From: a virus
Lineage: Duplodnaviria; Caudoviricetes
IMG/VR virus record: IMGVR_UViG_3300037067_015211
Span: 148,569 to 212,568 of that record
Reading direction: 5' to 3' (one strand)
Length of the DNA: 64,000 nucleotides
Positions 42,704 to 63,275 of this stretch are shown here, piece after piece. Position 1 is the stretch's first letter. Each line of letters begins with the position of its first letter. Both the position numbers and the translations under genes were made by a program. The notes beneath the pieces were generated by a model, which saw nothing but the letters and a program-made list of their open reading frames with translations, was not told where the DNA came from and did not search any database.

Positions 42704-43108
42704 TTAAGAAAAAATTGGACCGGGTAAATAGTTGTCTGCCGCCGCTTGATTAGTATCTAGTTGTTCTTGTGGAGAAAATTCGATATAATCTTTAAGTCCT
42801 TTAAGAATCTTGGGCTGTTCTGGGTCTGGATTGGAAATACCGTTTACCCACTGTATAAGATTTTCGTAGGAACGTTTATCGAGTGCCCCACGAATTTCGG
42901 CGGCTAAAAATGCAGGGACGGCAGTAGATGCGGCACACTGTAAAAAAATACCTGTCTTTAACCACTCGCGAAAATTATCCCAGTTCAAGGAATCGTGAAA
43001 CATTTGCTCAAACTCTTGGCGAGTCCATCCTAACGAGGCCAATACGGCCGGATCAGGATTTGCATCATCAATTTCTATCGGTCCATTTGGTGTATATACT
43101 GTGGTCAT
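42704..43108 (-). CDS. hypothetical protein (fibre assembly-like)
   Basis: 134-aa ORF after carbohydrate-binding genes. Confidence 0.55.
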   Translation of the reverse strand: MTTVYTPNGPIEIDDANPDPAVLASLGWTRQEFEQMFHDSLNWDNFREWLKTGIFLQCAASTAVPAFLAAEIRGALDKRSYENLIQWVNGISNPDPEQPKILKGLKDYIEFSPQEQLDTNQAAADNYLPGPIFS

Positions 43109-43557
43109 TATGCTGTCCTTTCAAAAGATATCATTTCGAAATATGTCGCATATCCCGTTCCCGTTTTTGTATCACACAGTAAAGTTACTGTATGTGAACC
43201 AGCCGATATTTCGATATTTGCGGTGCTAAAATCTGGAAGATAAGTGGCGGCTATATTCGTATCATATCCACTATCGTTAACAGTGACTCCGTCGATCTGA
43301 ATTTTCAAAATCCCACGGTTTGCGGCAGTAATACAAAATGCTCGTAATGTATAAGTACCTTTTGCAAAATAAAAATTCCACGAATGGTTGTCCCCACTAT
43401 CAGCAGAACTTTGCCCATATCCACTATTCAGAGAAGAACCATCATCAATAGTAGCCGTAAAAGTTCCTTGACCAGTAGAATCTGGCGGCATGGTTAGGGG
43501 AAAAATTACTATCGGAGAAGCTCCCCCCACGTCCTTGAGAATCGTTGTCGTACCCAC
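43108..43557 (-). CDS. CBM6/35-like beta-sandwich protein
   Basis: AKGTYTLR...RGILKIQIDG...AGSHTVTL. Confidence 0.65.
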   Translation of the reverse strand: MGTTTILKDVGGASPIVIFPLTMPPDSTGQGTFTATIDDGSSLNSGYGQSSADSGDNHSWNFYFAKGTYTLRAFCITAANRGILKIQIDGVTVNDSGYDTNIAATYLPDFSTANIEISAGSHTVTLLCDTKTGTGYATYFEMISFERTA

Positions 43558-44480
43558 TATGCTGTCCTCTTCAAAAGCATGGAACTGAAACCATGTATGA
43601 CATAGGCCGAGGATGAAGCATTCTTTCCGTTACATACTGCACGTAAAGTATGTATGCGGTTTGGATTGGTTATTGTTATGTTTGTTTGAGTAGTAAATAT
43701 TCTCGCTGTAGCCGCCGCATACATGTCTAGCGAGAACTTATAAACATCATCAATATACCAGTCGATAATTCCGGCATTATTTTGTACCTGATGATATTGA
43801 ATGGCGGTATATGTTCCAGCGGCGGCAATAAAATTCACTGACCAACTATCCCCATCGGCGACAGTTGACGAAAGCCACGGTTGTATTCCATACAGGAAAT
43901 TGGCGTTTGTGCTAGTGTTACGATACCATGTCCCGACTAAAGCAGTTGCCGCACAATTTATCGATGGGATGATAAGTATCGGAGACACACATTCTTGCTC
44001 TTCCGGATTGGTCGCCGTTCCGATAACGTAGGACGTTGGTTTCCATGATATGCCATAGAATCGATTTAGGTATCCAGTCGAGGATGCGTTGTGCCCATCA
44101 GTCAAAAGTTTTATGGCGTGTTTACCGTTGCCTATTGTTATTCCCGTGAATGACGCGAAAGTATTTAAATCACTAACGCCATAACAGTCTTGTGAACTTA
44201 TATAGTTATCGTCCACGTATAACTTGACTATTGAGCGATTTGTCGCTCTACCATAGTCAAGGCGCATTGTGTATGTACCCGCTGGAAGCCAAATGTTATG
44301 TGTATAGTTATCGCCATCGGCGTTACTGGCTAGGTTATTGAAGTCTGCGTTATATTTATAAAATCCAACGAATTGAGTAGTAACCCAAGTACCTTGCCCC
44401 ACACTATCCGCTCCCATGTGTCCGGGATGATAGAACAGCGGTAAATTTCCGCCCGGCTTCATAAAAGATGTTATGCCCAT
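43557..44480 (-). CDS. tandem CBM6/35-like protein
   Basis: Two copies of DGD...AGTYT...YVDD/YIDD...H.I/L module. Confidence 0.65.
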   Translation of the reverse strand: MGITSFMKPGGNLPLFYHPGHMGADSVGQGTWVTTQFVGFYKYNADFNNLASNADGDNYTHNIWLPAGTYTMRLDYGRATNRSIVKLYVDDNYISSQDCYGVSDLNTFASFTGITIGNGKHAIKLLTDGHNASSTGYLNRFYGISWKPTSYVIGTATNPEEQECVSPILIIPSINCAATALVGTWYRNTSTNANFLYGIQPWLSSTVADGDSWSVNFIAAAGTYTAIQYHQVQNNAGIIDWYIDDVYKFSLDMYAAATARIFTTQTNITITNPNRIHTLRAVCNGKNASSSAYVIHGFSSMLLKRTA

Positions 44481-60728: not shown

Positions 60729-61127
60729 TTATCTTTCCAAAATTATTGTTCCGTTAACAACCTTGGATTTCTTAATGCTCGCTCTAACATGATCCAACAA
60801 TCGCTCTTTAATCGATGTCGAGTTATAAACACGCGGAGGCAAATCCTTTCTTTGCCGTCCGCACTCCATATGTATAATAGCCTTACCGCCCTTTTTTATT
60901 TTTTTTACAATGAGTTTCATAACGTCTTTATCGCTGGGCGCAGTTGCAACCACTTTTTGTGATATATATATAATGTTCTGACTGTTGTTTTCCAGCCGTT
61001 CAATGCCCTTTATCGTTTTAATGTATTTTGCAAAATCGTCCGCATGGGGTTCATCCACTGCCTTTAAATTGGACACATTCTTTCTTTCAAAAATAACATT
61101 GTTTTGCCGCTTCACTTTTTTAAACAT
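60729..61127 (-). CDS. hypothetical protein, partial SAM-methyltransferase-like fold
   Basis: LENNSQNIIY...LIVKKIKKGGKAII resembles class I MTase C-half; no GxGxG. Confidence 0.4.
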   Translation of the reverse strand: MFKKVKRQNNVIFERKNVSNLKAVDEPHADDFAKYIKTIKGIERLENNSQNIIYISQKVVATAPSDKDVMKLIVKKIKKGGKAIIHMECGRQRKDLPPRVYNSTSIKERLLDHVRASIKKSKVVNGTIILER

Positions 61128-61282
61128 TATTTGCTCTCCTCTTCTTTTTTGTCCTGCAAAAGATCGGCGATTATCAAGCCCTCAACGTATTCGGAGAAAT
61201 TATTGTTGCACTTTTCCTTAGACTTTTTTCTAGCCGCCTCAAATAACGTTGTATTTAACGTCAGGCAATGTTGTTTTTTCAT
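61127..61282 (-). CDS. ribbon-helix-helix DNA-binding protein (51 aa, not in track)
   Basis: MKKQHCLTLNTTLFEAARKKSKEKCNNNFSEYVEGLIIADL; GGAGG RBS; TAATG coupling. Confidence 0.65.
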   Translation of the reverse strand: MKKQHCLTLNTTLFEAARKKSKEKCNNNFSEYVEGLIIADLLQDKKEEESK

Positions 61283-61346
61283 ATCGGGCACCTCCACTCA
61301 ATAAACATGATAGTAAATATATTGAAAAATATATACAGAAAAATAG

Positions 61347-61391
61347 CACAACATATTGTATTATGTATATAAATATATACAACATATTGTG
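61347..61391. promoter_or_regulatory. tandem NrdR-like boxes
   Basis: CACAACATATTGTA (61347) and TACAACATATTGTG (61378), 31 bp apart, upstream of redoxin and NrdD-like genes. Confidence 0.72.
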
Positions 61392-61406
61392 GTTGAAAGA
61401 TTTAGC

Positions 61407-61434
61407 TTGACTTTTCCCCCATCATATATATAAT
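61407..61434 (+). promoter_or_regulatory. sigma70-like promoter
   Basis: TTGACT-N16-TATAAT, then AAGGAG RBS. Confidence 0.65.
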
Positions 61435-61456
61435 GATAATATGAAGGAGAAATAAT

Positions 61457-61708
61457 TTGGACGTTAAAATTGACGAGGTAAAGCCCAAAGAGAATGGGCT
61501 TTGGAACATTATCGGTACCATTGATGGGGCAGTGTTTGGCCTAAGAGTAAAATACAAAATGGGCAATGCAATTCCATTTGGATCGCTCGTATTCTCAATT
61601 GGAGATAACGATATCCCTGAATTTACGGCAGAACTGTTTGCGCTCATTAAAGTTGCGATTGCCAAATTCAATGCAGAACAACACACTGATTTGAACAAAT
61701 TATTGTAG
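61457..61708 (+). CDS. hypothetical protein
   Basis: 83 aa, TTG start with AAGGAG RBS. Confidence 0.65.
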   Translation: MDVKIDEVKPKENGLWNIIGTIDGAVFGLRVKYKMGNAIPFGSLVFSIGDNDIPEFTAELFALIKVAIAKFNAEQHTDLNKLL

Positions 61709-61855
61709 AGCAATTTTTATCAAAAAAATTTTCTACACTTATCCACTTGTGGCAATCATGGTTGAATAAAAGGCGTCGTCAATGCATTATTTTTTACTCT
61801 ATAAGTTTATAAAAAATCGCTATGATGCTTTCACTTCAAATTTTAGGAGAATCAA

Positions 61856-62179
61856 ATGCTAACAATCTATACATTCGGAAAAGTCGGTTGCGCCAAGTGC
61901 GATTCCAGCAGACGAAAAATAGAGCACTACATAGAAAAATTAGAACTTGCCGAATGTGTGGATTATACGTTTTACGATATAACTGAAGAAGAGGGCTTGG
62001 CACTAGCGGCGTTTATGGATGCCGCTGTCGATATCCCACATACATTTATTTGGGAAGACCTCGAAGAGTTAGATCAATATAATTGTATTGCCCAGTGGCA
62101 TAAAGAAGTGCCCGATAAAACGCTCAAGGATATCCTTGTGGCAAATTGTTGTCCCTCTGATGAATTGGCAGTCGTATGA
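61856..62179 (+). CDS. glutaredoxin/thioredoxin-like protein
   Basis: TIYTFGKVGCAKC (CxxC), DIPHTFI cis-Pro motif. Confidence 0.8.
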   Translation: MLTIYTFGKVGCAKCDSSRRKIEHYIEKLELAECVDYTFYDITEEEGLALAAFMDAAVDIPHTFIWEDLEELDQYNCIAQWHKEVPDKTLKDILVANCCPSDELAVV

Positions 62180-62532
62180 AGATAACTAAGGAACGCTTTA
62201 AAGAACTTCTCTCATCTGAAACCGTAGACGGAAAGCAAATATTTGAAATTAAAGAAGAAACTGATAATAGTTGTATCGTCTGCGGAGATGGCAAATATGC
62301 CTTTGAAGTGAATTTCAAGCAAATGGAACAGAATGACGATTCTAACTGGAAACAAATTGTTGCTGTTTTCTTAGATAAGAGAGAAGCAAGGATTTTATCC
62401 CATCTTACTCGCGTAGTAGGCTACTATTCGCAAACACATAACTGGAATGATAGTAAAATAGGTGAGTTAAAAGATAGACGTGCAGGTGATTATAGCCTTA
62501 TGAAAGCGGAAAAGACAAAATCATTGATTTAA
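62176..62532 (+). CDS. nrdD: stand-alone NrdD-type glycyl-radical domain (only C-terminal part of class III RNR)
   Basis: TRVVGYY...NWNDSKIGELKDR matches NrdD C-terminal motif; only 118 aa. Confidence 0.75.
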   Translation: MKITKERFKELLSSETVDGKQIFEIKEETDNSCIVCGDGKYAFEVNFKQMEQNDDSNWKQIVAVFLDKREARILSHLTRVVGYYSQTHNWNDSKIGELKDRRAGDYSLMKAEKTKSLI

Positions 62533-63275
62533 AAAAATCTTGATAACCAATCTGATAGTGCGGGATCTTTCAGTGAGGCATACCGCTTATTCTTGTCTGT
62601 CAGGTCAACATTGAACAAAAATTTTGCTTCTTCTATATGTTTTTGTTCAAATGGAATCTTGATGCTAACCTTTTTGCGCTCCACTACATTACTGTTTAGG
62701 ATTTCCTCTACGCGACCCACATAACCTAATCCGCCGACAAATATCATTGTATCTGGCAAGGACATTCCATCATTTAGTGTTTGGTACAAATATTTTTTGT
62801 TTGTATCGTCAATTTTCTGATAATTTGCCATTACATCTTTAGCAGGAGTAATTCTACCACTAAATTCATTGCGCCCAGCAATTTCAATTGCTTTTCCTAA
62901 AATATCCAACAATATTTGTTTTTTGTTAGCATTGTTTGATATTTCATGCAAATATTTGTTTACATTATTGGTGGTATCACGTAAAACGAGATTTAGTGCT
63001 AGGGCAGAATGTGTGTAATCGTAAATATCATCTATTTTCTCTTGTATATTTTCTCTTGAATTGAAACGAATAACGTCTTGAATATTTTTAAATGTAATTA
63101 TGGGTTCTTCGCCGCCAATCAGATACTCCATATGACCTTTGTATATCAAATAAACGATTGCGCCGCTTATCGGAAGAAGATCATCTGGCCATATGTTATC
63201 TTTTACGACAGTCTTATTTTGCTGTACTGGGCTTGCCGAATTTAACGCGCTTCTTTTGTTGAGGCTCAATAACAT
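62529..63275 (-). CDS. hypothetical protein
   Basis: 248-aa ORF; NKRSA near N-terminus. Confidence 0.65.
   Translation of the reverse strand: MLLSLNKRSALNSASPVQQNKTVVKDNIWPDDLLPISGAIVYLIYKGHMEYLIGGEEPIITFKNIQDVIRFNSRENIQEKIDDIYDYTHSALALNLVLRDTTNNVNKYLHEISNNANKKQILLDILGKAIEIAGRNEFSGRITPAKDVMANYQKIDDTNKKYLYQTLNDGMSLPDTMIFVGGLGYVGRVEEILNSNVVERKKVSIKIPFEQKHIEEAKFLFNVDLTDKNKRYASLKDPALSDWLSRFF

Follow-up and report, generated by a model that had tools for sequence, protein, structure and literature searches.

A phage operon behind NrdR-type boxes encodes a stand-alone NrdD-type glycyl-radical protein and an nrdD-linked redoxin: a probable trans-acting module for a host class III ribonucleotide reductase

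Can the radical-bearing part of an anaerobic ribonucleotide reductase (RNR) be encoded as a separate protein, and do phages carry that part without the enzyme to which it belongs? This question is raised by a short operon in the genome of an uncultured phage, the linear 212,568-bp IMG/VR record IMGVR_UViG_3300037067_015211, which is estimated to be 95% complete and the last 64 kb of which are referred to here as the window (GC content 38%). The operon is a short plus-strand unit flanked on both sides by minus-strand genes. Behind two NrdR-type boxes and a promoter, it encodes a small protein (orf83), a redoxin and a protein of 118 amino acids (aa) resembling only the radical-glycine loop of NrdD, the class III RNR; the stop codon of the redoxin gene and the start codon of the 118-aa gene overlap in an ATGA. 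Glycyl-radical enzymes are cut irreversibly by O2 at the radical glycine and, to our knowledge, a replaceable radical module is known for pyruvate formate-lyase only. An earlier reading of this DNA (the original prediction) had proposed that the phage supplies a replaceable radical domain plus a reductant for the host NrdD, under the control of the host sensor of deoxynucleoside triphosphates (dNTPs). All the features on which it was based are present (Table 1), and each element of the proposal now has comparative support. Sequence comparisons make it probable that the operon provides a trans-acting radical module and its reductant for a host class III RNR, under the control of the host NrdR. 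What is new here is a phage that has such a module but neither RNR nor activase, with the module joined in one operon to an nrdD-linked redoxin and preceded by conserved NrdR boxes.

The 118-aa protein matches the Pfam model NRDD (PF13597) at model positions 533–560 of 562 only (E 6e-5), and TIGR02487 at positions 551–579 of 581 only. The protein had been described as carrying only the C-terminal motif of NrdD, with no barrel, and the two matches are indeed confined to the last ~30 residues of NrdD. The radical-glycine loop R-x-x-G-Y of NrdD is present (R79-V-V-G82-Y-Y), and the ten-stranded barrel with its finger-loop cysteine, corresponding to model positions ~1–530, is absent. There is no zinc ribbon of four cysteines just ahead of the loop, only a single C-I-V-C, and no cysteine column is conserved across the stand-alone family to which the protein belongs. 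The only PDB match to the profile was the NrdD of Prevotella copri (8p23) at residues 705–735, the glycine-loop region near the C-terminus. In the AlphaFold2 (AF2) model (predicted local distance difference test score, pLDDT, 82.7), an N-terminal alpha/beta domain (residues 1–70) is followed by a hairpin (77–86) tipped by G82 and by a helix (92–102). A Foldseek search of the PDB with the small protein returned nothing significant. Membership of the GrcA/Gly_radical family (PF01228) was considered and rejected, as Pfam and NCBIfam scans of the protein and 123 relatives returned NrdD models only.

A first search yielded nine small relatives of this protein, and an exhaustive profile search yielded 684 clusters at E <= 1e-10, so that the family is at least of that size. 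Among the best 150 clusters, 149 consist of proteins of 74–221 aa matched over their whole length. Species-representative genomes gave 317 matches and metagenomes more than 566, both counts including some tails of full-length NrdDs. Members of the family (~90–170 aa) share an N-terminal alpha/beta domain, a D-W...G-x-R-E-P linker, the glycine hairpin and a helix, and R79, G82, Y83, W90, S93, K94, E97 and R101 are invariant in 123 of them. The window protein aligns with the family from end to end (alignment A2) and, since the family is conserved over this entire length, it is not a fragment. No PHROG family was found for the protein or its 123 relatives, and there is no dedicated NCBIfam model for the stand-alone family, which is given no name in the source records.

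The cellular members of the family occur in three settings. In Elusimicrobia-like metagenome-assembled genomes (L085, L063, L088, L101), NrdD is encoded in two adjacent pieces, in operons with the order nrdR, small redoxin gene, nrdG, nrdD, small gene; the NrdD of the L085 type (~783 aa) stops just past the CxxC...CxxC ribbon, without R-x-x-G-Y, and the small gene lies ~70–140 bp downstream. In complete chromosomes of Planctomycetota, the two pieces are unlinked: nrdR-nrdD-nrdG operons encode an NrdD of ~797 aa with a tail consisting of the ribbon and a short glycine-free extension, and in one genome (G076) the small gene is more than 1 Mb away from this operon. Because the operons with a loop-less NrdD would otherwise be dead, the glycine loop can be expected to work from a separate polypeptide. 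In the third setting, an additional small gene accompanies an intact NrdD. It lies between the genes for Rrf2 and desulfoferrodoxin, a superoxide reductase (L072:5382-6609, L074, L083), behind the gene for the hybrid-cluster protein (Hcp; L128:3969-6023) or before that for Rex (L118:3344-4512). These neighbours suggest a context of oxidative or nitrosative stress, which fits use after damage by O2 or nitric oxide (NO).

The co-occurrence of the two genes was examined in 121 genomes of Planctomycetota. The small gene is present in eight of them, all eight of which have NrdD; it was found in all four genomes with a loop-less NrdD, in 4 of the ~24 with an intact NrdD, and in none of the 82 without an NrdD match. 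In Brocadiaceae, Planctomycetota and some phages, the tails of full-length NrdDs are nearly identical to the loop-and-helix motif of the 118-aa protein. Taken together, the settings, the co-occurrence and the NrdR boxes described below indicate, as judged from sequence, that the family functions with class III RNR. The idea of a radical domain acting in trans is supported by whole-protein homologues that are the separately encoded glycine-loop subunit of loop-less NrdDs. Repair of an O2-cleaved NrdD, the role originally predicted, is retained as one of two modes found in cells; in the other, the protein is a separate subunit that a two-piece NrdD cannot do without. The mode that would apply to the phage depends on whether the NrdD of its host is intact or loop-less.

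The redoxin has no Pfam match, and its relatives match the Pfam families Thioredoxin_3 and Glrx-like below threshold. An atlas search led to glutaredoxin and Thioredoxin_3 clusters, and a profile of 14 homologues matched the glutaredoxin-like units of PDB entries 1j08 (E 4e-10) and 1a8l (E 5e-8), and NrdH (1h75) with an E-value of 0.48. C12, C15 and P61 are invariant in the 14 homologues. In the AF2 model (pLDDT 90.6), the order of elements is strand-helix-strand-helix-strand-strand-helix, with the CxxC at the start of helix 1 and the cis-proline before strand 3, as in the thioredoxin fold, and the top 20 PDB matches of the model are all thioredoxins or thioredoxin-like domains (TM-score 0.6–0.69). 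The phage protein also has an insertion and a C-terminal tail with C-C. Its homologues, 27–37% identical (with a pairwise E-value of 2e-16 to that of L085), are encoded directly 3' of a full-length nrdD at ten loci (Planctomycetota, Brocadiaceae and other bacteria) and in one phage (L031), and, in the two-piece operons L085 and L063, after nrdR and before nrdG, giving 13 nrdD-linked loci in total. In the small phylum with the adjacent two-piece operons, all seven genomes have a homologue (29–41% identical); none was found with this query in 399 genomes of Clostridia. Since its homologues are encoded beside nrdD or in nrd operons, the redoxin is assigned by sequence to an nrdD-linked redoxin family, and the predicted reductant is thus substantiated as a CxxC protein with a modelled thioredoxin fold and relatives at these loci.

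The boxes upstream of the operon are arranged as in an NrdR regulon, where palindromes of 16 bp stand in tandem at a promoter with a spacing of about three helical turns. Their shared 12-mer, ACAACATATTGT, occurs in two exact copies in the window (61348 and 61379), against 0.03 expected, and there is no third copy anywhere in the 212,568-bp genome. Scored against ACACAATATATTGTGT, which we take to be the NrdR consensus, they are the only good tandem pair in the whole genome. The same type of box is found 5' of small glycine-loop genes that are not linked to nrd operons, and tandem boxes 32 bp apart head the Elusimicrobia-like cellular nrd operons. When four mismatches at most are allowed, 22 of 144 unique small genes have a box in the 300 bp upstream of them, versus 7 of 647 control windows; with three mismatches at most, the figures are 10 of 144 versus 0 of 647. 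No ATP-cone or NrdR gene was found in the phage record. Regulation of the operon by the host NrdR, as originally proposed, is supported by these comparisons and by the retention of the boxes in a related phage in which synonymous sites are saturated. A lone NrdR-like box, CCACAATATATAGTGT, with two mismatches, lies outside the window at positions 124308–124323 of the genome (L222:2309-2324). It was rejected as a second NrdR target of the phage, being a single box in a divergent intergenic region between a RuvC-like gene and a gene without an assigned function, with no link to nucleotide metabolism.

The related phage is represented by a metagenomic contig (L137) that retains the three genes and the promoter as well as both boxes at unchanged spacing. 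Its boxes, CCACAATATATTGTAT and ACACAATATATTGTGG, are likewise 31 bp apart and are nearer to the NrdR consensus than those of the window; the -35 and -10 hexamers are identical, and the two 118-aa glycyl-radical proteins are 72% identical. The rates of nonsynonymous (dN) and synonymous (dS) substitution (Table 1) indicate that the genes of the operon are under purifying selection. The 150-bp regulatory stretch is ~87% identical by manual count while dS exceeds 1.7 in the flanking genes, and it is therefore also under constraint. Just downstream of the glycine-loop gene, L137 has a candidate TnpB-like gene (IS200/IS605 OrfB-type, by sequence appearance) for a protein of 403 aa (L137:7580-8791, minus strand); the counterpart position in the window is occupied by a 248-aa open reading frame (ORF) at 62529–63275 on the minus strand.

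Table 1. Features of the operon, with positions in the window and comparison with the related phage contig L137
Feature	Position	Strand	Description	Comparison with L137
NrdR-type box 1, GCACAACATATTGTAT	61346..61361	+	13/16 positions as in the consensus	
NrdR-type box 2, ATACAACATATTGTGG	61377..61392	+	13/16 positions as in the consensus; 31 bp from box 1	
Sigma-70-type promoter, TTGACT-16-TATAAT	61407..61434	+	11/12 positions matched	
orf83, 83 aa	61457..61708	+	TTG start behind GAAGGAG; cysteine-free; small conserved protein	dN/dS 0.13
Redoxin, 107 aa	61856..62179	+	G-C-A-K-C (C12-A-K-C15); cis-Pro P61; thioredoxin fold predicted by modelling	dN/dS 0.05
Stand-alone NrdD-type glycyl-radical protein (glycine-loop gene), 118 aa	62176..62532	+	G82 codon at 62419-62421	dN 0.175; synonymous sites saturated

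The phage does not appear to possess the enzyme that this protein would serve. The original prediction had noted that no nrdG is present in the window, and this holds for the whole virus record, in which no NrdD body, NrdG or Fer4_12 match, no class I or II RNR and no body resembling pyruvate formate-lyase was found. The small gene was matched at 53 viral loci. Among 50 virus records tested, 40 have the stand-alone ORF only (50–192 aa), and three further viral records encode a full-length NrdD. Eight phages with the small gene are complete (at least 90% complete, seven with terminal repeats). In all eight, the only NRDD match is the small piece, and there is no NrdG and no class I or II RNR; NrdG is confined to phages that also have a full-length NrdD. 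The carriage of the radical piece alone is, thus, a recurrent habit of phages, and its identical state in the eight complete genomes shows that it is not an assembly accident of this record. A complementary truncated nrdD elsewhere in the phage, named in advance as the result that would turn the operon into part of an ordinary split enzyme, was found neither in this record nor in the eight complete phages, and a split nrdD within the phage was rejected on this basis. A phage-encoded activase was likewise rejected: besides the lack of NrdG and Fer4_12 matches, the two radical S-adenosylmethionine (radical-SAM) genes of the phage are generic (MoaA/viperin-like and SPASM). One of them, for a protein of 284 aa, lies outside the window at positions 42942–43796 of the genome (L002:1471-2325, plus strand) and scores best against MoaA- and viperin-type models. 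Its score against NrdG2 is 23 bits (cut-off 131), with 25–27% identity over the core; a role as activase is conceivable for this protein and has no positive support. Two of the full-length phage NrdDs, those of L031 (1584 aa) and L049 (1203 aa), far exceed the usual length and match NRDD in pieces within one frame, which suggests the presence of inteins.

Several variants of the glycine-loop protein were encountered. P0086 (802 aa; three contigs, the longest of 42.5 kb) has a glycine-loop module (residues 1–105) fused to an apparent family-A DNA polymerase with an exonuclease domain; if real, this fusion would physically tie the radical module to a phage replication enzyme. A mini form of 50 aa (L048:9950-10102), encoded on a 44-kb viral contig without an NrdD body, is shorter than the main family; it has a single CxxC ahead of the glycine loop and no N-terminal domain. 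The small proteins of L085, L088, L089, L097, L101, L090, L095 and L098 end in a lone cysteine or in C-C. The tails of the loop-less NrdDs of Planctomycetota (L217-L221) contain C-C-[GTNS]-W-[NS]-[KR]-E, and A-N-C-C occurs close to the C-terminus of the phage redoxin (62149-62154). By analogy with the C-terminal cysteine pairs of class I and class II RNRs, these cysteines may form a thiol relay.

The proposed course of events is as follows. The host NrdR, bound to the two boxes, would keep the operon off until its nucleotide signal calls for more dNTP synthesis; a rise in the demand for dNTPs is expected during replication of a genome of 212 kb. The small protein would then be made by co-translation with its reductant; it would carry the radical glycine (G82, in R-V-V-G-Y-Y) autonomously, and the radical-SAM activase NrdG of the host would install the radical on it. 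The hairpin of the small protein would be inserted into the barrel of the host NrdD. If that NrdD is of the two-piece kind, the small protein would be its normal, separately made radical subunit; alternatively, it would replace a tail that O2 has cleaved or NO has quenched. The redoxin would supply reducing equivalents, re-reducing the active site of NrdD. The formation of the radical on the small protein, its docking, the electron transfer, the binding of NrdR and the benefit to the phage are what we infer. We lean, by a little, towards the more general proposition that class III RNR is a two-component enzyme in many anaerobic lineages, and that phages without an RNR encode its sacrificial, separately regulated radical subunit, here together with a dedicated reductant and under host NrdR, thereby sustaining dNTP synthesis.

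A number of observations weigh against this reading. The scores of the 118-aa protein, 22.2 bits (Pfam) and 19.9 bits (TIGR), are below the curated cut-offs of 26.2 and 326, and a wide structural search with residues 2–70 gave CyaY (Z 5.4) and HicA (Z 5.3) as best matches, within the noise of the tool. The small protein has no zinc ribbon; in two-piece systems, the ribbon remains on the NrdD body. The boxes are located 5' of the -35 hexamer (the end of box 2 lies 15 bp upstream of it) and do not cover the promoter. The linkage of boxes, redoxin and glycyl-radical domain, which had been put forward as a check in homologues, is kept in L137 but is not general: according to BLAST of the viral loci and to the upstream neighbours, the redoxin is not a regular neighbour of the small gene, and redoxin motifs are only weakly enriched near small genes (2.4 vs 1.5 per 100 kb). 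Finally, the reading assumes that the host has NrdD, NrdG and NrdR, and the features examined for a host assignment did not point to one: the capsid protein is distantly of the phage G type (24–28% identical to those of phage G and Tunturi_5), no tRNA was found in the window, and the phage protein could not be placed in the family tree.

Four other explanations were considered. The free glycine-loop protein might be a decoy or inhibitor that competes for NrdG or plugs the NrdD barrel, shutting down anaerobic dNTP synthesis in the host or diverting radical equivalents. Phage inhibitors commonly mimic a single domain of an enzyme that the phage itself does not encode, and the conserved residues are the same as those needed for NrdG binding. 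We nevertheless consider such a role unlikely, as a blockade of dNTP synthesis would harm a phage with no RNR of its own and 212 kb to replicate, functional nrd operons in cells depend on the homologues, and the gene is co-translated with an nrdD-linked reductant behind boxes that control RNR genes in cells. The operon might also be part of an ordinary split phage enzyme whose body and activase escape detection through divergence or are encoded in sequence missing from the assembly. The linear record lacks an estimated 5% of the genome and the operon lies 1.5 kb from the contig end, so that an nrdD or nrdG of this phage could be located in the unassembled portion, and the 284-aa radical-SAM gene has a weak similarity to NrdG2. 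The orientation of the neighbouring genes, which are on the opposite strand on both sides of the operon, the lack of NrdD body, NrdG and class I or II RNR in all eight complete phages, the better match of the radical-SAM protein to MoaA- and viperin-type models and the absence of a body resembling pyruvate formate-lyase make this improbable.

There is little likelihood that the protein serves a different glycyl-radical enzyme of the host or a phage enzyme that has escaped recognition, the redoxin then acting generally in thiol redox chemistry. The fusion partner in P0086 is a DNA polymerase rather than an RNR, and orf83 would be left without explanation, both of which leave room for another partner; the loop, however, matches NrdD models only, with no Gly_radical, GrcA or pyruvate formate-lyase family returned, the family is restricted, in cells, to NrdD-bearing genomes, and the NrdR boxes and the nrdD-linked redoxin point to RNR. 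That the gene is a non-functional remnant of a decayed nrdD could be suspected from the confinement of its NrdD resemblance to the last ~30 residues, but at least 684 clusters retain the 100-aa architecture in full, with an N-terminal domain of its own, and this, together with purifying selection, translational coupling and a conserved regulatory region, renders this extremely improbable. A trans-acting radical module with its reductant, serving a host class III RNR, is the explanation that we prefer.

Two further features of the locus should be mentioned. No Pfam, PHROG or NCBIfam match was obtained for orf83 (atlas scores <0.9), and no homologue of it was found in any compared locus besides L137. 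An AT-rich imperfect inverted repeat, AATATATT-GAAA-AATATATA, is located at 61315–61336, directly 5' of box 1, and is kept in L137; it may be part of the divergent promoter of a 56-aa minus-strand gene (61127–61297) or a further operator.

The closest functional parallels are GrcA/YfiD of E. coli and Y06I of phage T4, autonomous glycyl radical cofactors that serve as spare parts for pyruvate formate-lyase (PMC13450708, PMC8683613). Like them, the 118-aa protein appears from its sequence to be a small stand-alone C-terminal module that bears the radical and needs the activase of the parent enzyme, and with Y06I there is a phage-encoded example. It differs from them in its loop, which is of the NrdD type with no sequence relation to theirs, in having, according to the model, a folded N-terminal domain of its own, and in its proposed target, class III RNR. 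In many cells, unlike GrcA/YfiD, the NrdD-type small gene is the sole copy of the loop, and its product would therefore be an obligate subunit there rather than a spare. A review of June 2026 reports spare parts for formate lyases only and none for class III RNR, text searches of the literature turned up no report of a spare part for NrdD or of an NrdD made in two pieces, and a 2013 survey of phage RNRs described nrdD genes split only by introns, inteins or endonucleases (PMC3653736). With the C-terminal domain of NrdD itself (P. copri 8p23, T4 NrdD), the 118-aa protein shares the loop-and-helix motif R-x-x-G-Y...W-N-x-[SG]-K-x-x-E-L-x-D-R; unlike NrdD, it has no barrel, finger loop, ATP-cone or conserved zinc ribbon, and is encoded alone.

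An RNR with a detached C-terminal module has a precedent in the split class II enzyme NrdJa/NrdJb of Pseudomonas aeruginosa, which is described as having its C-terminal functional module on a separate polypeptide (PMC4520616, cited in PMC9669993). The class and the chemistry of that enzyme are different and the NrdJ genes are adjacent, whereas the small glycine-loop piece bears the radical glycine, can be unlinked from the body and is carried alone by phages. Reduction by a redoxin also has a parallel in some class III RNRs, thioredoxin being the reductant of the NrdD of Neisseria bacilliformis (Wei et al. 2014, as cited in PMC4493059). The phage redoxin resembles the redoxins of RNRs (NrdH, thioredoxin) and the units of archaeal protein disulfide oxidoreductases (1j08, 1a8l) in its predicted thioredoxin fold, N-terminal CxxC, cis-proline and encoding in nrd operons; it differs from RNR redoxins in scoring below every Pfam redoxin threshold, in its poor match to NrdH, and in its insertion and C-C tail.

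If the proposed reading is true, the strategy of a detachable cofactor or spare part would be a general one, with a second, unrelated module devoted to the enzyme that makes DNA precursors under anoxic conditions. Class III RNR would have a two-subunit architecture, and there would be an explanation for the nrdD genes that lack a radical glycine and would otherwise be taken for pseudogenes. The small gene would represent a new kind of phage auxiliary gene, encoding a consumable part of a host enzyme and not the enzyme itself. The operon points to an undescribed way in which a phage may sustain the oxygen-fragile DNA-precursor enzyme of its host.

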